Sequence record: OR352951.1
DNA: 64,000 nt
Origin: Escherichia phage AV121
Direction: 5' to 3' (one strand)
Positions 2,343-21,018 of the stretch are shown here, one piece after another (within the stretch, counting starts at the first letter, position 1; each line of letters opens with the position of its first letter). The position numbers and the translations under genes were made by a program. The notes under the pieces are model-generated. The model worked only from the letters and a program-made list of their open reading frames with translations. It was not told the origin of the DNA and searched no databases.

Positions 2343-4322
2343 ATGACTTTATTATCTCCGGGCATTGAGCTCAAAGAAACTACGGTTCAAAGCACCGTGG
2401 TTAATAACTCTACTGGTACAGCAGCTTTGGCCGGTAAATTCCAGTGGGGTCCTGCTTTTCAGATTAAACAGGTTACAAACGAAGTAGATTTAGTTAATAC
2501 TTTTGGTCAACCTACAGCTGAAACTGCTGACTATTTTATGTCTGCAATGAATTTCTTACAATATGGAAATGATTTGCGAGTTGTGCGCGCTGTCGATAGA
2601 GATACCGCTAAAAACTCATCTCCGATTGCTGGTAATATTGAATACACAATTTCTACCCCAGGTAGTAACTACGCGGTTGGAGATAAAATCACGGTCAAAT
2701 ATGTTTCAGAAGATGTTGAAACAGAAGGTAAAATTACCGAAGTAGATGCTGATGGAAAAATTAAGAAAATTAATATTCCTACTGCAAAAATTATTGCTAA
2801 AGCTAAAGAAGTTGGCGAATACCCAACATTAGGTTCTAACTGGACTGCAGAAATTTCTTCTTCATCTTCCGGTTTAGCTGCAGTAATAACTCTTGGAAAA
2901 ATTATTACTGATTCCGGTATTTTATTAGCTGAAATCGAGAGCGCTGAAACTGCTATGACAGCAGTTGATTTTCAGGCAAATCTTGAAAAATATGGAATTC
3001 CAGGAGTAGTAGCTCTCTATCCAGGCGAATTAGGCGATAAAATTGAAATTGAAATCGTATCTAAAGCTGACTATGCGAAAGGCGCTTCTGCATTACTGCC
3101 AATTTATCCAGGTGGTGGTACTCGTGCATCTACTGCCAAGGCAGTATTTGGATATGGGCCGCAGACTGACTCACAGTACGCTATTATAGTTCGTCGAAAT
3201 GATGCTATTGTTCAAAGCGTTGTTCTTTCAACTAAGCGTGGTGAAAAAGATATTTACGATAGTAACATCTATATTGATGACTTTTTCGCAAAAGGTGGTT
3301 CAGAATATATTTTCGCAACTGCGCAAAACTGGCCAGAAGGCTTCTCTGGAATTTTAACTCTGTCTGGTGGATTATCATCAAATGCTGAAGTAACAGCAGG
3401 AGATTTGATGGAAGCTTGGGACTTCTTTGCTGACCGCGAATCTGTTGACGTTCAGTTGTTTATTGCGGGTTCTTGTGCCGGTGAATCTCTTGAAACAGCA
3501 TCTACTGTCCAAAAACATGTTGTTTCAATTGGTGATGCTCGTCAAGATTGCTTAGTATTGTGCTCACCTCCGCGTGAAACTGTAGTTGGAATTCCTGTAA
3601 CTCGTGCAGTAGATAATTTAGTTAACTGGAGAACTGCAGCAGGTTCATACACTGATAATAACTTTAATATCAGTTCAACCTACGCAGCAATTGATGGTAA
3701 CTACAAATATCAGTATGACAAATATAATGATGTGAATCGTTGGGTTCCATTAGCAGCTGATATTGCTGGTTTATGCGCAAGAACTGATAACGTATCTCAG
3801 ACTTGGATGTCTCCAGCTGGTTATAATCGTGGCCAGATTCTTAACGTTATTAAACTTGCTATTGAAACTCGCCAAGCTCAGCGCGACCGTTTATACCAAG
3901 AAGCTATTAATCCAGTAACTGGTACAGGTGGCGATGGTTACGTATTGTATGGTGATAAAACAGCTACTTCTGTTCCTTCTCCATTTGATCGTATTAACGT
4001 TCGTCGTCTGTTTAATATGTTGAAAACGAATATCGGACGTAGTTCAAAATATCGTTTGTTCGAATTAAACAACGCGTTTACTCGTTCATCATTCCGCACA
4101 GAAACTGCCCAATACTTACAGGGAATTAAAGCTCTCGGTGGAATTTATGAATATCGTGTAGTTTGCGATACAACAAATAACACTCCGTCAGTAATTGATA
4201 GAAATGAGTTTGTTGCAACATTCTACATTCAACCGGCTAGAAGCATTAACTACATTACCTTGAACTTCGTAGCAACTGCTACTGGTGCAGATTTCGATGA
4301 GTTAACTGGTCTTGCTGGTTAA
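2343..4322 (+). CDS. 18: tail sheath protein gp18
   Basis: 659-aa ORF, same length as T4 gp18; follows gene 17; TATAAATA box upstream. Confidence 0.95.
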   Translation: MTLLSPGIELKETTVQSTVVNNSTGTAALAGKFQWGPAFQIKQVTNEVDLVNTFGQPTAETADYFMSAMNFLQYGNDLRVVRAVDRDTAKNSSPIAGNIEYTISTPGSNYAVGDKITVKYVSEDVETEGKITEVDADGKIKKINIPTAKIIAKAKEVGEYPTLGSNWTAEISSSSSGLAAVITLGKIITDSGILLAEIESAETAMTAVDFQANLEKYGIPGVVALYPGELGDKIEIEIVSKADYAKGASALLPIYPGGGTRASTAKAVFGYGPQTDSQYAIIVRRNDAIVQSVVLSTKRGEKDIYDSNIYIDDFFAKGGSEYIFATAQNWPEGFSGILTLSGGLSSNAEVTAGDLMEAWDFFADRESVDVQLFIAGSCAGESLETASTVQKHVVSIGDARQDCLVLCSPPRETVVGIPVTRAVDNLVNWRTAAGSYTDNNFNISSTYAAIDGNYKYQYDKYNDVNRWVPLAADIAGLCARTDNVSQTWMSPAGYNRGQILNVIKLAIETRQAQRDRLYQEAINPVTGTGGDGYVLYGDKTATSVPSPFDRINVRRLFNMLKTNIGRSSKYRLFELNNAFTRSSFRTETAQYLQGIKALGGIYEYRVVCDTTNNTPSVIDRNEFVATFYIQPARSINYITLNFVATATGADFDELTGLAG

Positions 4323-14434: not shown

Positions 14435-15115
14435 TTATTTTAATGTTACGAAAGAAGAGTTGCGTGTTTCACGAATTAAAACTGATCCGTCACGGTTAAT
14501 GTAATAAATTAAGCTAAATAAAGTTTGGTGTGCTGACGCATGTTCAAAACTTGTTGGGTGAGATTTCCAATCCGGAGTTTCAGCAATCCATTGATAAATC
14601 CACCAAGGAACAGTGCAGAATCCTGGATTTTTTCCAATCAACTGAAGATTCGGGCTAAAGTTTTCCGGAAGAGTAAATACAGACGGCTTTTCAGATTCAA
14701 TAATCTCAGCTACAGCCTGTTCGAATTTTTCTTCAACAAAAGGAGTATCTTCAATCAAAACATCGGTATTTTCAGGAATTTTATCCGTTTCTACTACTTC
14801 AATTTTAATGTCAGATTTAACTGGAGAATCAATCAAAAGTGCTGCTTCTGGATTGACTTCTTCATCGTCATATTTTAATCCCTCTGCAGCATCAGCAGCA
14901 TCAATTAAGTCTTTAATAGATAACCCATCAGTCTCTGGCATAGGTTCACTAGCGAGCTTCTGGAGGGCTTCTTCAATATCAACAACGATATTATCAAAAG
15001 ATTTATTCTTTTTGACCTTTATACCAAACTGTTCAGCATATTCAGCTAATTTAGCTTTAGCTTCTTTATTATCATCAAGAGCCTTCAGCTCTGCAATATA
15101 ATCTTTATCTATCAT
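14435..15115 (-). CDS. inh: Inh, inhibitor of prohead protease gp21
   Basis: 226-aa ORF adjacent to hoc; T4 Inh length and position. Confidence 0.75.
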   Translation of the reverse strand: MIDKDYIAELKALDDNKEAKAKLAEYAEQFGIKVKKNKSFDNIVVDIEEALQKLASEPMPETDGLSIKDLIDAADAAEGLKYDDEEVNPEAALLIDSPVKSDIKIEVVETDKIPENTDVLIEDTPFVEEKFEQAVAEIIESEKPSVFTLPENFSPNLQLIGKNPGFCTVPWWIYQWIAETPDWKSHPTSFEHASAHQTLFSLIYYINRDGSVLIRETRNSSFVTLK

Positions 15116-15128
15116 AATATTTCCTCAG

Positions 15129-15136
15129 TATAAATA
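15129..15136 (+). promoter_or_regulatory. late promoter box TATAAATA (GIY-YIG endonuclease gene)
   Basis: Exact TATAAATA 28 nt upstream of ATG 15165. Confidence 0.6.
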
Positions 15137-15164
15137 TAGATATATTTATTACTCGGAAAATAGT

Positions 15165-15782
15165 ATGTACCACTTTGTATATGAAACAACAAATCTAATA
15201 AATGGTAAAAAGTATATAGGAAAACACTCTACTGATGACTTGAATGATGGTTACCTTGGTTCTGGTAAGGCAATTCAGCAGGCTATAAAGAAATATGGTG
15301 AAAACAATTTCTCTAGAACAATACTAAAAGAGTTTAAAACTTCCGAAGAAGCGTACATGTATGAAGAAGAAATTATAACTCCTGAACTAATAAAAAGCAA
15401 AAATTATTATAATATGAAACCTGGTGGAATTGGTGGAATTGTTATGACTACAGAGGTTATAGCAAAGATGAAAGAATCTTCCGCTAAAAGATTTGAAAAC
15501 TCGCCAGGCACGGTATTAGGTAAAACTTGTTACACTAATGGAACTAAAAATATTTTTATTAAACCTGGAGAACTTGTTCCAGAAGGATTTGTAAAAGGGA
15601 TGGTTCATCCTAATAGAAAGTCCAGAAAAGGATGTAAAGTCAAACCGACTACCACAGGAACTTTTTGGATCAATAATGGCACAATAAATAAATTAATACA
15701 ACCAGACGGTATTATTCCCGACGGATTTATTAAAGGTCGTCTCATGAAAAGAGATTCTAAAGGCAAATTTAGTAAGGCATAA
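15165..15782 (+). CDS. GIY-YIG homing endonuclease (Seg-like, free-standing)
   Basis: 205-aa ORF; N-terminal GIY-YIG module (HFVYETTN..GKKYIGKHS...YLGSGK); sits between inh and uvsW, where T4 carries a seg gene; TATAAATA box 28 nt upstream. Confidence 0.75.
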   Translation: MYHFVYETTNLINGKKYIGKHSTDDLNDGYLGSGKAIQQAIKKYGENNFSRTILKEFKTSEEAYMYEEEIITPELIKSKNYYNMKPGGIGGIVMTTEVIAKMKESSAKRFENSPGTVLGKTCYTNGTKNIFIKPGELVPEGFVKGMVHPNRKSRKGCKVKPTTTGTFWINNGTINKLIQPDGIIPDGFIKGRLMKRDSKGKFSKA

Positions 15783-15784
15783 TT

Positions 15785-17293
15785 ATGGATATTAAAGTAC
15801 ATTTTCACGACTTCAGTCATGTACGCATCGATTGTGAAGAGAGCACGTTCCACGAATTAAGAGATTTCTTTTCGTTTGAGGCCGATGGATATAGATTTAA
15901 CCCTCGCTTCAGATATGGCAACTGGGATGGACGAATCCGTCTTTTAGATTATAATCGTCTTCTTCCATTCGGCTTAGTCGGGCAAATTAAAAAATTCTGT
16001 GATAACTTTGGCTATAAAGCCTGGATTGACCCGCAAATTAACGAAAAAGAAGAATTATCAAGAAAAGATTTTGATGAATGGCTTTCTAAATTAGAAATCT
16101 ATTCAGGAAATAAAAGAATTGAACCGCACTGGTATCAAAAAGATGCAGTGTTCGAAGGATTAGTTAATCGTCGTAGAATTCTTAATCTTCCAACATCCGC
16201 AGGTAAATCTTTAATTCAAGCTTTGCTTGCGCGATATTATTTGGAAAATTATGAAGGTAAAATTCTTATCATTGTTCCAACAACTGCTCTGACAACTCAG
16301 ATGGCTGATGACTTCGTCGACTATCGTTTATTCAGCCATGCAATGATAAAGAAAATTGGTGGCGGAGCATCAAAAGATGATAAATATAAAAATGATGCAC
16401 CAGTCGTTGTTGGTACATGGCAAACTGTAGTAAAACAACCGAAAGAATGGTTCTCACAGTTTGGAATGATGATGAATGATGAATGCCATCTTGCTACAGG
16501 AAAAAGTATTTCATCTATCATATCAGGTTTAAATAACTGCATGTTCAAATTTGGTCTATCTGGTTCATTACGTGATGGCAAAGCCAATATCATGCAGTAT
16601 GTTGGAATGTTTGGTGAAATATTTAAGCCAGTAACGACTTCTAAATTAATGGAAGATGGACAAGTAACTGAGCTAAAAATTAATAGTATTTTTCTTCGCT
16701 ATCCCGATGAGTTCACTACTAAATTAAAGGGAAAAACTTACCAAGAAGAAATAAAAATTATTACTGGGCTCAGTAAAAGAAATAAATGGATCACTAAATT
16801 AGCTATTAAGCTTGCGCAAAAAGATGAAAACGCTTTTGTCATGTTTAAACATGTATCGCATGGTAAAGCTATTTTCGATTTAATTAAAAATGAATACGAT
16901 AAAGTTTATTACGTATCAGGGGAAGTTGATACCGAAACCCGCAATATAATGAAAACCTTAGCTGAAAATGGTAAAGGAATAATTATAGTAGCTAGTTATG
17001 GTGTATTTTCTACTGGTATTTCAGTTAAAAATCTGCATCACGTTGTTTTAGCGCACGGTGTTAAATCAAAAATTATTGTATTACAAACAATCGGTCGTGT
17101 ATTACGTAAGCATGGTTCTAAGACAATAGCAACAGTCTGGGACCTCATAGATGACGCGGGCGTGGTTTCTAAATCAAAAACATCTTCTAAAAAATACTCG
17201 CATTTAAACTATCTTTTAAAACATGGACTTGATCGTATTCAGCGTTATGCTGATGAAAAGTTTAATTATGTGATGAAAGAGGTTAAACTTTGA
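15785..17293 (+). CDS. uvsW: UvsW DNA/RNA helicase
   Basis: 502-aa ORF with SF2 helicase motifs (PTSAGKS Walker A, DECH box); T4 UvsW length as recalled. Confidence 0.9.
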   Translation: MDIKVHFHDFSHVRIDCEESTFHELRDFFSFEADGYRFNPRFRYGNWDGRIRLLDYNRLLPFGLVGQIKKFCDNFGYKAWIDPQINEKEELSRKDFDEWLSKLEIYSGNKRIEPHWYQKDAVFEGLVNRRRILNLPTSAGKSLIQALLARYYLENYEGKILIIVPTTALTTQMADDFVDYRLFSHAMIKKIGGGASKDDKYKNDAPVVVGTWQTVVKQPKEWFSQFGMMMNDECHLATGKSISSIISGLNNCMFKFGLSGSLRDGKANIMQYVGMFGEIFKPVTTSKLMEDGQVTELKINSIFLRYPDEFTTKLKGKTYQEEIKIITGLSKRNKWITKLAIKLAQKDENAFVMFKHVSHGKAIFDLIKNEYDKVYYVSGEVDTETRNIMKTLAENGKGIIIVASYGVFSTGISVKNLHHVVLAHGVKSKIIVLQTIGRVLRKHGSKTIATVWDLIDDAGVVSKSKTSSKKYSHLNYLLKHGLDRIQRYADEKFNYVMKEVKL

Positions 17294-17982
17294 ATTATAA
17301 ATTAATATATGATAATTTAATTAATAGAGCCCAGAATCGGGCTCGCCTTAATGGATACACTGAAACACATCATATAATTCCTAGATGTATGGGTGGTACA
17401 AATGATAAGTGTAATTTAGTAGAACTAACGGCTGAAGAACATTTTATAGCCCATAAACTTTTAGCTAAAATTCATCCAAACCATTACGGTATAATTAAAG
17501 CTGTTATATGTATGGGGATGAATTCAAATACTCATGAAAGACACGTCAATAAATCTTACGCATGGGAACGTCGTAAAATGGCAGAACTTCAATCCGGCGA
17601 AGGTAATCCATTTTACGGAAAACACCATACGGAAGAACATAAACAATATATGTCAAAACTCATGAAAAGTCGTCCAATTACATGGGGAAATAAAATTAGT
17701 AAAACTAAAAGAATGAACCCAACGAAATGGACTGAAGAAGCTAAAAGATTACATTCAATCAATCAATCGGGTAAAAATAACGGCATGTATGGAAGGAAAC
17801 ATTCCGCTAAATCTATTCAGAAAATTAAAGATAACATGCCAGATAATTCAGGAGCTAATAACCCAGCTGCTAAACCTATAGAAGTAAATGGTGTTAAGTA
17901 TAAATGTATGAAAGATGCTTCTAAAGCTACTGGATTATCAATGTACAAACTAAGAATACTTAGAAAAACAGTTAATTTATAA
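17290..17982 (+). CDS. HNH homing endonuclease, free-standing
   Basis: 230-aa ORF; HNH motif (ETHHIIPRCMGGTNDKCNLVELTAEEHFIAH) then repeated NUMOD-like GxxNPxYGKxHS modules and a basic C-terminus; TTG start overlaps the uvsW stop (TTGA). Confidence 0.75.
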   Translation: MNYKLIYDNLINRAQNRARLNGYTETHHIIPRCMGGTNDKCNLVELTAEEHFIAHKLLAKIHPNHYGIIKAVICMGMNSNTHERHVNKSYAWERRKMAELQSGEGNPFYGKHHTEEHKQYMSKLMKSRPITWGNKISKTKRMNPTKWTEEAKRLHSINQSGKNNGMYGRKHSAKSIQKIKDNMPDNSGANNPAAKPIEVNGVKYKCMKDASKATGLSMYKLRILRKTVNL

Positions 17983-17994
17983 GGGCTTCGGCCC
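17983..17994 (+). terminator. hairpin after the HNH endonuclease gene
   Basis: GGGC-ttcg-GCCC followed by TTT, immediately after the stop. Confidence 0.55.
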
Positions 17995-18007
17995 TTTGGA
18001 GAAAAAG

Positions 18008-18238
18008 ATGTTACTAGAATTTAAACAATTTCTTTATGAAGCTTCTATTGATGAATTTATGGGTAAAATTGCCTCTTGTCAAACATTAGAAGGTTTAGAA
18101 GAACTTGAAGCTTATTATAAGAAAAGAGTCAAAGAAACTGAATTAAAAGATACTGATGACATCTCTGTGAGAGATGCTTTGGCAGGAAAAAGAGCTGAAT
18201 TAGAAGATTCAGACGATGAAGTAGAAGAAAGCTTTTAA
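18008..18238 (+). CDS. uvsW.1: UvsW.1 small acidic protein
   Basis: ATG at 18008 preceded by GGAG; 76 aa beginning MLLEFKQFLYEASIDEF, as recalled for T4 UvsW.1. Confidence 0.7.
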   Translation: MLLEFKQFLYEASIDEFMGKIASCQTLEGLEELEAYYKKRVKETELKDTDDISVRDALAGKRAELEDSDDEVEESF

Positions 18239-18293
18239 ATTAAAAAAGGCCCAACCAAAAAGGAAGGGCCAAAACTATAGACTAAAGGTCACA

Positions 18294-18461
18294 CTATAGC
18301 AAAAGTTGCGTTTCATTTAATTGTTCTTCCGAACTTTCTGAAACTGGTAGTTCTTTAATGTAATTATAGCAAGGCCCAGGATGTACAGGACCTTTGTCTG
18401 TTTCAACAACCAATGCAGAATCGATTGGAGTTTTACAGACAACACAAATCTTATCTGACAT
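18294..18461 (-). CDS. small Cys-rich (CxxC...C) hypothetical protein, not in ORF track
   Basis: Hand-translated 55-aa ORF MSDKICVVCKTPIDSALVVETDKGPVHPGPCYNYIKELPVSESSEEQLNETQLLL; strong AGAGGAGA RBS 6 nt upstream. Confidence 0.5.
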   Translation of the reverse strand: MSDKICVVCKTPIDSALVVETDKGPVHPGPCYNYIKELPVSESSEEQLNETQLLL

Positions 18462-18489
18462 GATTGTCTCCTCTGAATTATATATCTAT

Positions 18490-18714
18490 TTATACAACTC
18501 TCATATGCATATCAATGCCCATATCTTTAGAATAAAAATATTCATCAAGATATCCGGCAAATTTTCCTTTAATATAAAGAACATCTTCACCGCACGGGTG
18601 GTCGGCCAGGATACGAATATCCTGACGCTTAAGATTATGCTTTTTCATTAAGAATTGAATTTCCGTTTCAAATTCTTCTTCATAATTAAAAGCATCATCA
18701 ATGTTATATCTCAT
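18490..18714 (-). CDS. hypothetical protein upstream-adjacent to uvsY
   Basis: 74-aa ORF, ATG checked; start overlaps uvsY stop. Confidence 0.55.
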   Translation of the reverse strand: MRYNIDDAFNYEEEFETEIQFLMKKHNLKRQDIRILADHPCGEDVLYIKGKFAGYLDEYFYSKDMGIDMHMRVV

Positions 18715-19127
18715 TATTTTCCAGCCTCAAATGCTCGCATGTCTTGAATATGCTTAATAGCAAATCCACGTGATTTAATAGCATCAAGAGCTCCGCTACA
18801 GAAATCTAATAAAATCCCCCAATACTGTAACGAGGTATCAACCTTTAAAACATCCTTATCAGCTGATAGAACTGTCTTCATTTCTGATTTCTCGTAACGA
18901 TCCATACTAAATTCATCACCATCTCCTCGTCCCGAGTAGTAGTCTAATTTAGCTTTAAGAGCAACTTTTTTCTGTGCTTCAATTCTAAGCATTTCCTTTT
19001 TAATACTTGAATGCTTATTAAGCCATTTACTATATAACATCACATTATTAGCTGCTTCATACTGTAATTTAGTCGAATCTATAAACACATCTTTCTTCAA
19101 TTCTTCTTGAAGATCTTCTAATCTCAT
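18714..19127 (-). CDS. uvsY: UvsY recombination mediator
   Basis: 137-aa ORF; T4 UvsY length and position beside gene 25. Confidence 0.85.
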   Translation of the reverse strand: MRLEDLQEELKKDVFIDSTKLQYEAANNVMLYSKWLNKHSSIKKEMLRIEAQKKVALKAKLDYYSGRGDGDEFSMDRYEKSEMKTVLSADKDVLKVDTSLQYWGILLDFCSGALDAIKSRGFAIKHIQDMRAFEAGK

Positions 19128-19193
19128 ATTGTTCTCTATTCAATTGTTATTGGATGGACTTAGATTCATTATACCACGTTTATACGTGAAGCA

Positions 19194-19592
19194 TTATACT
19201 CTATTACTGGAAGCCAGTTGTAGTTTTATCTGCTCAATATCATCAGGGTTATCGATGACTGAAAAGCGTATTTCTACTATCAGAGTATAATCATCATAAA
19301 CTGGTATCACATTAACTGATAATTTATCAATACGTGGCTCATAGTTTCTTACTGCGCTTTCGATATTACGCTCAACCGTGTCAGCAGTAAGAGGAGTCAT
19401 ATTCTCAAAAAGTTGGTCAGATAAATCGCATCCAAATTCAGGGTCAAACGGTCTTGAACCTTTTCTTGTTGTAATAATTCCTAAAAGACTATTTTTAATT
19501 GACCTTAATCCAAGTGATCTTGAAACGTCTTTGTTCCAATCCATTTTCATCTCTGGGTCAATATCAGAATAAAGCTTATTAATATTTGCCAT
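19194..19592 (-). CDS. 25: baseplate wedge protein gp25
   Basis: 132-aa ORF, same length as T4 gp25. Confidence 0.9.
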   Translation of the reverse strand: MANINKLYSDIDPEMKMDWNKDVSRSLGLRSIKNSLLGIITTRKGSRPFDPEFGCDLSDQLFENMTPLTADTVERNIESAVRNYEPRIDKLSVNVIPVYDDYTLIVEIRFSVIDNPDDIEQIKLQLASSNRV

Positions 19593-20218
19593 TACAATAG
19601 CTCAAAGAATTCTTTGAGTCCTCTTATTACATGAGCGTGAGTTTTTCCACACTCTGGACATTTAATTGGAACAGCCAAATAAACAGTAGGCTTTAAAAGC
19701 ATATCTTTTAAAGCCACAATATCTGACTCTGTGATGATAGAATATAAATCTTCTAGTTCCTTTTCATTTAAGTCTTCAACTGGAATGCTTTCCCCGTTAG
19801 CATGAATCGTTTCTATACATGATACTATCATGTGGGCTATATTTTTATCATCAAAAATTTTAGGGTATCGGAATTTAATTTTAATGTCACCCAGTGTATA
19901 CCAAAGGTCTTCTGGTGCATCTATTTGTGTATGTAATAGATTTATATGGGTTGGTATTTCAGTTCCGCAGGTGCACTTCCAGGAGTTTTCGTGATTAACT
20001 TCTCCAAGAGAATGCGCCCATAAATGAATCAACAATAGTTCTGATTCTTGGCGATTTAAATCTTTTGCATTTGTGCAGTCTTTGATTAGCTTTTTAACAA
20101 TTACTTCTACAGAACCATTATTTTTGGCAGTAATAAGTTCTAGATATTCTTTAAGAGTAAATGCGCGACAGTTGATTATTTTAGAACCAACTCTCACATC
20201 AAATTTGTATTCATACAT
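19592..20218 (-). CDS. 26: baseplate hub protein gp26
   Basis: 208-aa ORF; T4 gp26 position; late box 21 nt upstream on minus strand. Confidence 0.85.
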
Positions 20219-20239: not shown

Positions 20240-20247
20240 TATTTATA
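20240..20247 (-). promoter_or_regulatory. late promoter box (minus strand) for gene 26
   Basis: Plus-strand TATTTATA is TATAAATA on the minus strand, 21 nt upstream of gene 26 ATG. Confidence 0.65.
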
Positions 20248-20251
20248 AATA
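20244..20251 (+). promoter_or_regulatory. late promoter box TATAAATA for gene 51
   Basis: Exact TATAAATA 17 nt upstream of gene 51 ATG; overlaps the minus-strand box. Confidence 0.65.
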
Positions 20252-20268: not shown

Positions 20269-21018
20269 ATGGCAAACATTATTCGTTGTAAATTACCAGA
20301 TGGTGTTCATCGTTTTAAACCATTTACGGTAGAAGATTATCGAGATTTTTTGTTAGTTCGAAACGATATAGAACATCGGTCACCACAAGAACAAAAAGAA
20401 ATAATTACTGATTTAATTGATGATTATTTTGGAGACTATCCGAAGACTTGGCAACCATTTATATTTTTGCAGGTATTTGTAGGGTCAATAGGTAAAACAA
20501 AAGTACCAGTCACATTCGTATGTCCAAAATGTAAAAAAGAAAAGACAGTTCCATTTGAAATATACCAAAAAGAATTAAAGGAACCTGTTTTTGATGTAGC
20601 TAATGTTAAAATTAAATTAAAGTTTCCTTCTGAGTTTTATGAAAATAAAGCAAAGATGATTACTGAAAATATTCATTCTGTTCAAGTAGATGAAATTTGG
20701 TATGATTGGAAGGAAATTAGCGAGTCTAGTCAAATAGAACTCGTTGACGCCATCGAGATAGAAACATTAGAACAAATTCTCGATGCAATGAATCCTATTA
20801 ATTTAACTCTACATATGTCATGCTGTAATAAGTACATTAAAAAATACACTGATATAGTAGACGTGTTTAAGCTATTAGTTAACCCAGATGAAATATTTAC
20901 TTTTTATCAAATTAATCACACACTCGTAAAAAGTAATTATAGCTTAAATTCAATAATGAAAATGATTCCTGCTGAGCGCGGATTCGTATTAAAACTGATT
21001 GAGAAGGATAAACAATAA
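20269..21018 (+). CDS. 51: baseplate hub assembly protein gp51
   Basis: 249-aa ORF divergent from gene 26; T4 gp51 length. Confidence 0.85.

Follow-up and report, generated by a model that had tools for sequence, protein, structure and literature searches.

A probable free-standing Mob-type HNH homing endonuclease gene in a foreign block at the 3′ end of uvsW in Escherichia phage AV121

Introduction

The best described relative of the gene analyzed here is mobE of phage T4, which is situated at nrdA/nrdB. MobE makes an HNH-dependent, strand-specific nick 122–126 nucleotides (nt) into the neighboring conserved gene, followed by gene conversion and co-conversion of the flank; mobE itself is co-transcribed with nrdA and carries an internal terminator that has been verified experimentally (Wilson & Edgell 2009, PMC2790892). 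How an HNH nick leads to gene conversion is listed as an open question for the HNH homing enzymes (Edgell review). The present report concerns an open reading frame (ORF) of 230 amino acids (aa) found at the uvsW/uvsW.1 junction of Escherichia phage AV121 (sequence record OR352951.1). The window analyzed is the whole stretch of 64,000 nt, read as one strand 5′ to 3′, and all coordinates refer to it. The ORF appears to be a free-standing Mob (HNH) homing endonuclease gene, contained in a foreign block of about 805 base pairs (bp), that would spread by homing into the 3′ end of uvsW. From the sequence comparisons described below, this reading is given a probability of roughly 0.8.

The AV121 gene shares several properties with mobE of T4 (PMC2790892). 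Both encode an N-terminal HNH domain followed by NUMOD3-type repeats, both have a start codon that overlaps the stop of the upstream gene, both lack a promoter of their own, and both carry a stable hairpin in codons ~10–19. The differences are also clear. The AV121 gene is at uvsW/uvsW.1 and starts with TTG, whereas mobE is at nrdA/nrdB and starts with ATG. The C-terminus of the AV121 protein has an I-TevI-like helix-turn-helix in place of the Cys/His-rich end of MobE. In addition, the diverged flank in AV121 is upstream of the gene, whereas MobE nicks the gene downstream.

Other known systems show partial similarities. I-TevI (PDB 1i3j/1t2t) has a GIY-YIG catalytic domain and is intron-encoded; the AV121 protein carries the same type of DNA-binding module but joined to HNH, and is free-standing. 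I-HmuI and I-BasI of Bacillus phages resemble the AV121 protein in having an HNH domain followed by NUMOD-type DNA-binding modules, but those enzymes are intron-encoded, and no significant sequence or fold match to either was obtained in the searches. A nicking mechanism is expected for an architecture of this type (in part, Edgell review). The MobA/gene 60 cassette of T4 and the Aeh1 mobE in nrdA are examples of an endonuclease gene placed within a conserved ORF with the host gene rebuilt around it (Edgell review). The AV121 locus is similar, but here only the last four codons of the host gene are displaced and replaced, and UvsW keeps its length and is not split.

The uvsW/uvsW.1 junction

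The features of the junction are as follows.

17158–17278, + strand: diverged 3′ patch of uvsW, 121 nt, about 27% diverged from T4 (mismatch profile and alignment)
17279–17967, + strand: insert proper, 689 bp not present in T4 (direct comparison with T4; a run of A leaves the junction position ambiguous by up to 4 nt)
17279–17293, + strand: substitute uvsW tail GAGGTTAAACTTTGA (E-V-K-L-stop), which holds the Shine-Dalgarno sequence GAGG (17279–17282) and the TTG start (17290–17292) of the endonuclease gene
17290–17982, + strand: Mob-family HNH endonuclease ORF, 230 aa (first-start ORF of its frame; homology)
17965–17982, + strand: displaced original uvsW tail AAAACAGTTAATTTATAA, 18/18 nt identical to the T4 uvsW tail
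17983–17994, + strand: UUCG-tetraloop hairpin GGGCTTCGGCCC, at the equivalent position behind the uvsW stop of T4 and of loci L008, L009 and L010, all without the HNH gene

T4 does not have the ORF. Its uvsW gene ends in ...ATGAAAACAGTTAATTTATAA, and only the hairpin GGGCTTCGGCCC separates uvsW from uvsW.1, in agreement with the adjacency of the two genes that the initial annotation, made from the AV121 sequence alone, had given for T4. The 230 aa ORF described there is present at 17290–17982, with its TTG overlapping the uvsW TGA (17291–17293) as TTGA and the GAGG placed 7 nt 5′ of the TTG. The ORF stops at TAA 17980–17982, the hairpin follows directly on the 3′ side, and the ATG of uvsW.1 (18008) is 25 nt past the stop, which was also as first described. 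The hairpin is host sequence outside of the insert, since it is found after the uvsW stop in T4 and in the three other loci lacking the gene. Where the initial annotation had placed the insertion between uvsW and uvsW.1, the junction is indeed occupied, but the insertion point is four codons 5′ of the original uvsW stop and thus not strictly intergenic.

The left end of the insert provides a surrogate uvsW tail with a stop codon, a Shine-Dalgarno sequence and the TTG start. At the other end the displaced tail AAAACAGTTAATTTATAA now encodes the C-terminal codons of the endonuclease (KTVNL) and its stop, so that the endonuclease reading frame is closed by displaced host uvsW codons and the original uvsW stop. 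The last four residues of UvsW are changed from TVNL to EVKL by the cassette. The junction reveals, nucleotide by nucleotide, a way for such a gene to insert into a conserved coding sequence and leave it at full length.

The same design is found in Dhakavirus UP19, where uvsW ends in ...ATGAAA followed by GAGGTCCAAATTTGA, with the TTGA overlap. The substitute tail arrangement, ATGAAA followed by GAGGTnnnnnnTTTGA, is common to UP19 and the metagenome locus L131. The endonuclease ORF of UP19 ends in ATGAAACAGGTGGATTTATGA, and 21/21 nt of this segment are those of the uvsW tail in the copy-less Dhakavirus-type loci L021 and L036. Thus Tequatrovirus and Dhakavirus share one insertion point, directly after ATGAAA. 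The sequence immediately 5′ of this point, AAATTYAAYTAYGTNATGAAA, is among the best conserved DNA of the region in 32 distinct copy-less alleles from several genera, and ATGAAA is invariant in all of them.

Klebsiella phage Roth17, the closest orthologue outside of Tequatrovirus, displays a different junction (L004 positions 2935–2950 and 3605–3625). Here the gene occupies precisely the ATGA in which the uvsW stop and the uvsW.1 start overlap; it starts at that ATG, and its 3′ end re-creates CTATGA for uvsW.1. A comparison of the Roth17 and AV121 junctions thus shows one endonuclease lineage with two insertion geometries, 12–15 nt apart.

The diverged patch of uvsW

The insert is accompanied by a patch of altered sequence in the host gene. 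The AV121 uvsW sequence from 15785 to 17157 has 99.2% nt identity with T4. In the mismatch profile against T4, 33 mismatches fall in three profile windows at 17135–17278, which make up 150 aligned positions, the last of them extending to 17973 across the removed insert; elsewhere, from 14435 to 19573, there are 0–3 mismatches per 50 nt. Outside of the foreign block (17158–17967), which thus measures about 805 bp, the backbone is nearly identical to that of T4. The block consists of the diverged last ~40 uvsW codons, the substitute four-codon tail with its stop, and the endonuclease ORF; altogether the last 45 codons of AV121 uvsW are within the block.

The patch is common to the four carrier phages that were aligned and is not present in the three aligned Tequatroviruses lacking a copy. 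In the phage collection, 48 records show the patch at ≥95% identity, none are found at 90–95%, and all others are at or below 90% with partial coverage. The HNH gene itself is found at ≥95% identity in the same number of phage records, 48, which include T6 and Yersinia phage PST. The cassette of AV121 is 96–100% identical to those of phages Killian, ZN18 and G8, while the upstream uvsW sequence remains close to T4.

In the conserved part of the patch, nine of the ten differences from T4 read from the sequences are synonymous third-position changes. By its sequence the patch resembles the end of uvsW from a more distantly related donor, and not the product of a few targeted changes. It probably came in together with the gene as flanking donor DNA, and it may also be a version of the target that resists cleavage. 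No close donor lineage for the patch was found: among the sampled lineages, carriers and non-carriers alike, none is above about 65–73% over 136 nt. A comparable rise in divergence over 160–200 nt on the 5′ side of the insert is seen when UP19 and Roth17 are compared with their copy-less relatives.

The UvsW of the carriers reads GVVSKSKTSSKKYS at 17164–17205 (residues ~461–474), and all other sampled lineages, with or without the gene, have GVKPKS..KKKYV/T in this place. Thus the cassette also alters a conserved stretch of the helicase near its C-terminus. The presence of the cassette accounts for the 3′ end of uvsW as a local hotspot of divergence among phages that are otherwise nearly identical.

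The endonuclease protein

A BLASTP comparison with the five T4 Mob proteins gave matches to all of them, with MobE as the closest T4 relative (42% identity over 181 aa, E-value = 4e-33, or 8e-34 in a second comparison) and about 70% identity in the motif region. The alignment begins at residue 1 (MNYQKIY versus MNYKLIY), which supports the TTG start. Matches to the other four, MobB (1e-25), MobD (6e-25), MobC (6e-19) and MobA (4e-15), are confined to the N-terminal domain. The protein also matches PHROG 655, 'homing endonuclease', at 3.9e-60, and there are 327 homologues in the databases, for most of which precomputed Pfam domains are not present. The PHROG match and the database homologues rule out a chance ORF.

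The domains of the protein, which appears to be a Mob-type HNH nuclease fused to an I-TevI-like DNA-binding region, are as follows.

17290–17517, + strand: N-terminal HNH nuclease domain, aa 1–76, with H27/H28, N42, H51 and H55; the domain common to T4 MobA–E
17569–17655, + strand: NUMOD3 module 1, aa 94–122, the best stretch for Pfam PF07460
17758–17937, + strand: NUMOD3 module 2 and the start of the helix-turn-helix, aa 157–216, similar to the I-TevI DNA-binding domain

The HNH motif had first been recognized by eye. In an alignment with homologues its catalytic His, structural Asn and metal-binding His are kept: H28, P31, G36, N42, E50, H51 and H55 are invariant in 64 homologues, and H28, N42, H51 and H55 are also invariant in an alignment of 56 homologues. 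The Pfam HNH profile PF01844 gives a score below cut-off (E-value = 0.012, 16.2 bits vs 21.4), and because of this the HNH membership by sequence rests on the Mob-family and PHROG matches. A predicted model with a predicted local distance difference test (pLDDT) score of 93 shows a strand at 25–28, a strand at 43–46 and a helix at 48–61 around the HNH residues.

The repeated NUMOD-like modules that had been noted correspond to two matches to Pfam NUMOD3 (E-value = 7.6e-14). The segment aa 157–216 matches the I-TevI DNA-binding domain 1i3j in the PDB sequence search (E-value = 0.006), and 1i3j is the top Foldseek match (probability 0.99); the Pfam I-TevI_DNA-bd profile is below threshold (E-value = 0.029). 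The architecture is thus, by sequence, an N-terminal Mob-type HNH nuclease with a NUMOD3 and helix-turn-helix region of the I-TevI type.

Orthology with mobD or mobE, as in the annotation of phage PST, was considered and rejected. The sites differ (mobD is at nrdC.11/mobD.1, mobE at nrdA/nrdB), the similarity to MobD stops at aa 71, and the similarity to MobE fades in the C-terminal third. By these comparisons the gene is a paralogue of mobE and not an orthologue of either gene.

Distribution and integrity of the gene

About 500 records at the Tequatrovirus level match the surrounding region, and ~10% of these carry the HNH gene. Among IMG/VR sequences, 2 of 31 uvsW loci have the gene, and in the others uvsW and uvsW.1 are 0–30 nt apart or overlap; an exact-pattern scan of IMG/VR for the left junction returned only the two known carrier loci. 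Orthologues with 54–70% identity are present in five further loci, those of Dhakavirus UP19, Klebsiella phage Roth17, Morganella phage Rgz1 and two metagenome contigs. In all five the gene is situated between uvsW and uvsW.1 with a 4-nt overlap. This is sporadic presence at one conserved site among related genomes, as is characteristic of a homing endonuclease gene.

The flanks of the gene were compared in nine Tequatroviruses with the gene and seven without it. Over the 500 nt upstream, a phage lacking the HNH gene is the nearest or joint-nearest neighbor for six of the nine carriers, and in the downstream 800 nt this is the case for eight of the nine. Carriers do not cluster by their flanks, and copy-bearing and copy-less phages are interleaved. 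Such interleaving fits a cassette moving among backgrounds, as support and not as proof. Together with the Mob family relationship and the absence of the ORF from T4 and most T4-like phages, it supports the proposal of the initial annotation that the gene is a mobile element.

All nine copies examined are intact, with 230 aa and a TTG start. The ratio of nonsynonymous to synonymous divergence (pN/pS) is 0.04–0.09 and the synonymous divergence (pS) is 0.10–0.15 among these copies. The ORF is under strong purifying selection, and the intact copies together with the low pN/pS argue against a decaying gene.

Expression signals and RNA secondary structure

No convincing promoter was found before the HNH gene; there are weak sigma-70-like matches only, fewer than in shuffled sequence. 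Between 10363 and 20244 a single late-promoter motif TATAAATA is present on the + strand, at 15129–15136, upstream of segE. A terminator has been reported downstream of uvsW.1 in T4-like phages (PMC1524935). Since the gene has no promoter of its own, the sole late motif precedes segE and the terminator follows uvsW.1, co-transcription with uvsW is likely.

A hairpin is found within the first codons of the gene.

17327–17344, + strand: hairpin GAGCCC-AGAATC-GGGCTC within codons 13–19, where T4 mobE has its internal terminator

A hairpin is present at the same codons (~12–19) in six of six orthologue lineages, AV121 and L004, L005 (2929–2999), L128, L130 and L131, with five different stem sequences. 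Five differing stems at one place give good comparative support for a selected structure, as judged from single-sequence folds and inspection. With RNAalifold, seven 5′ regions aligned by MAFFT yielded no consensus structure, as insertions and deletions misaligned the hairpins. The hairpin is not general in the wider family, and few of 80 distant IMG/VR homologues have one; it is thus a feature of the T4-like versions.

In the predicted fold of AV121, the Shine-Dalgarno sequence GAGGU (17279–17283) pairs with GCCUU just 3′ of the hairpin (z = −2.8), the hairpin and pairing region together spanning 17327–17349. In the predicted fold of UP19, AGAGGU pairs with ACCUCU (z = −4.5). The start-codon region is also paired in the predicted folds. 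As a hypothesis, these models suggest that translation may be limited to ribosomes that terminate on uvsW.

Proposed mechanism and alternative explanations

The homing reading can be put as a series of steps. The HNH gene, without a promoter of its own, would be transcribed late together with segE, uvsW and uvsW.1. Translation would be at a low level, by ribosomes terminating on uvsW, with the Shine-Dalgarno sequence and start held in the predicted RNA structure beside the hairpin resembling the mobE terminator. When a carrier and a phage without the gene, e.g. T4, infect the same cell, the NUMOD3 and helix-turn-helix region would bind a long asymmetric site in the uvsW 3′ end that either spans the insertion point or is no more than about 130 bp from it. 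One strand would then be nicked by the protein, as by MobE, and repair from the gene-bearing genome would copy the ~805-bp block into the recipient. The carrier itself would be protected, with its site interrupted by the insert and the 121 nt next to it diverged. Nicking of the copy-less uvsW 3′ end is proposed by analogy with MobE.

Several points weigh against this account. We infer that the same 48 records carry both gene and patch from the equal counts and not from matched record lists, and the target site is placed by the divergence pattern only. T-even genomes are mosaic in general, so that interleaved flanks fit homing without proving it. The strong purifying selection, together with a diversity (pS 0.10–0.15) that matches the flanks in depth, would also fit a long-resident beneficial gene. 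The AV121 hairpin is without a U-tract and so may not terminate transcription, and sequestration of the Shine-Dalgarno sequence is predicted in two of the six orthologue lineages only, the AV121/T6 type and UP19.

The purifying selection and synonymous diversity are also what is expected from long residence under selection of a nuclease that no longer homes, and that is kept to damage co-infecting phages or for some other use, e.g. DNA binding. Orthologues persist at the same site in several genera, and free-standing T4 endonucleases are known to cause marker exclusion (Edgell review). However, only about 10% of Tequatrovirus records carry the gene and its presence and absence are interleaved in the flanks, and such a domesticated or weaponized nuclease appears unlikely as a full explanation. 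Interference and homing are not mutually exclusive, as both need the same cleavage, and the present data do not separate them. Still less probable is an inactive remnant, that is, a decaying or untranslated endonuclease gene carried passively with the uvsW allele. The non-ATG start, the lack of a promoter and the Pfam HNH score under cut-off would agree with a remnant, and T4 does have defunct endonuclease genes such as I-TevIII. But the nine full-length copies show no frameshift and a pN/pS of 0.04–0.09, the catalytic residues are invariant, a good GAGG is present 7 nt before the TTG, and MobE is equally promoterless and overlaps its upstream gene, yet is active.

The records of G2540-3, G28 and G8 label the gene 'group I intron endonuclease', which would make uvsW and uvsW.1 the exons of one gene. 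There is a weak match to the NCBIfam grpIintron_endo profile, and the two genes were historically read as one ORF. However, no Rfam intron family is matched in 15000–18600, even at E-values up to 1, and the NCBIfam TIGR01453 match, at 30 bits, is under the cut-off of 56 and covers the shared NUMOD/helix-turn-helix part. In addition, also in phages without the insert, uvsW has a stop codon at its end and uvsW.1 a Shine-Dalgarno sequence and ATG of its own, and resequencing and a crystal structure have established two separate genes (PMC1524935). With no intron detected and the profile score below threshold, an intron-encoded endonuclease was rejected and can be given almost no weight. The gene is a separate ORF between uvsW and uvsW.1 with no intron family matched, i.e. 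it is free-standing.

The homing endonuclease reading can be extended, more tentatively, to the way in which the element is built. Judged from the junctions, it might be a "self-repairing" coding insertion that is reused across genera, with a surrogate tail that doubles as ribosome-binding site and start, a frame closed by the host, and initiation hidden in RNA structure. Expression of the endonuclease would then be dosed by uvsW and strictly coupled to it, and the nick would be at or next to ATGAAA. This combination is a possibility on the doubtful side. If true, the endonuclease would be dosed by the very recombination helicase gene that it parasitizes.

The gene adds a sixth, uncharacterized Mob-type HNH endonuclease with a defined insertion site to the T-even set, and it gives a testable target prediction, the 3′ end of uvsW in T4-type phages. 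T6, with the gene, and T4, without it, form a ready donor and recipient pair of standard laboratory phages, and this pair could address how an HNH nick gives gene conversion.

Database annotation

The gene is already annotated as a homing endonuclease in T6, PST, ACG-C40 and others, and a literature search found no paper describing it. The element is ordinary in kind, labeled in databases but never studied. The GenBank labels are inconsistent and include mobD/MobE, 'group I intron endonuclease', 'homing endonuclease' and 'hypothetical protein'; the assignment made here corrects them. Labels of the neighboring genes also vary. uvsW.1 is often labeled DNA helicase or 'UvsW C-term', and in T6 (AP018814) it is annotated from an upstream TTG (243 nt) and not from the ATG. 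SegE carries a wrong name in some records, e.g. 'tail tape measure protein' in T6 (AP018814) and 'SegA' in ACG-C40.

Neighboring genes

The surrounding genome is that of a T6-like Tequatrovirus, and over 15100–18300 it shows 98.8% identity with phage T6. Yersinia phage PST and about 30 further records share this gene order. The neighbors of the HNH gene are as follows.

15165–15782, + strand: segE, GIY-YIG free-standing homing endonuclease gene (Pfam SegE_GIY-YIG, E-value = 6.5e-09; 99% identical to T4 SegE)
15785–17293, + strand: uvsW helicase gene, 502 aa (Pfam UvsW_N, E-value = 8e-44; ResIII, DEAD, Helicase_C)
18008–18238, + strand: uvsW.1, 76 aa, downstream neighbor (Pfam UvsW-1, E-value = 1.7e-30; 100% identical to T4)

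uvsW is thus flanked by two different endonuclease genes, the GIY-YIG gene segE and the HNH gene, as had been suggested from the sequence; the upstream one proves to be SegE. segE is a neighbor and is outside of the HNH cassette. The Edgell review places its insertion between inh and uvsW and gives uvsW as the target. The two genes assort independently, and all four combinations of presence and absence are found among Tequatroviruses (loci including L006, L007, L122, L123 and L127).

A SegE-like GIY-YIG match with 36% identity is present downstream of uvsW.1 on the − strand of two Dhakavirus-like IMG/VR loci, L033 (4765–5151) and L035 (4766–5152). By its sequence this match may represent a further endonuclease gene of the uvsY region.

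At 20240–20251 of AV121 the late-promoter motif TATAAATA occurs twice, once on each strand, with the two copies overlapping. They are situated in a divergent intergenic region between an ORF ending at 20218 (− strand) and an ORF starting at 20269 (+ strand), which correspond to genes 26 and 51.

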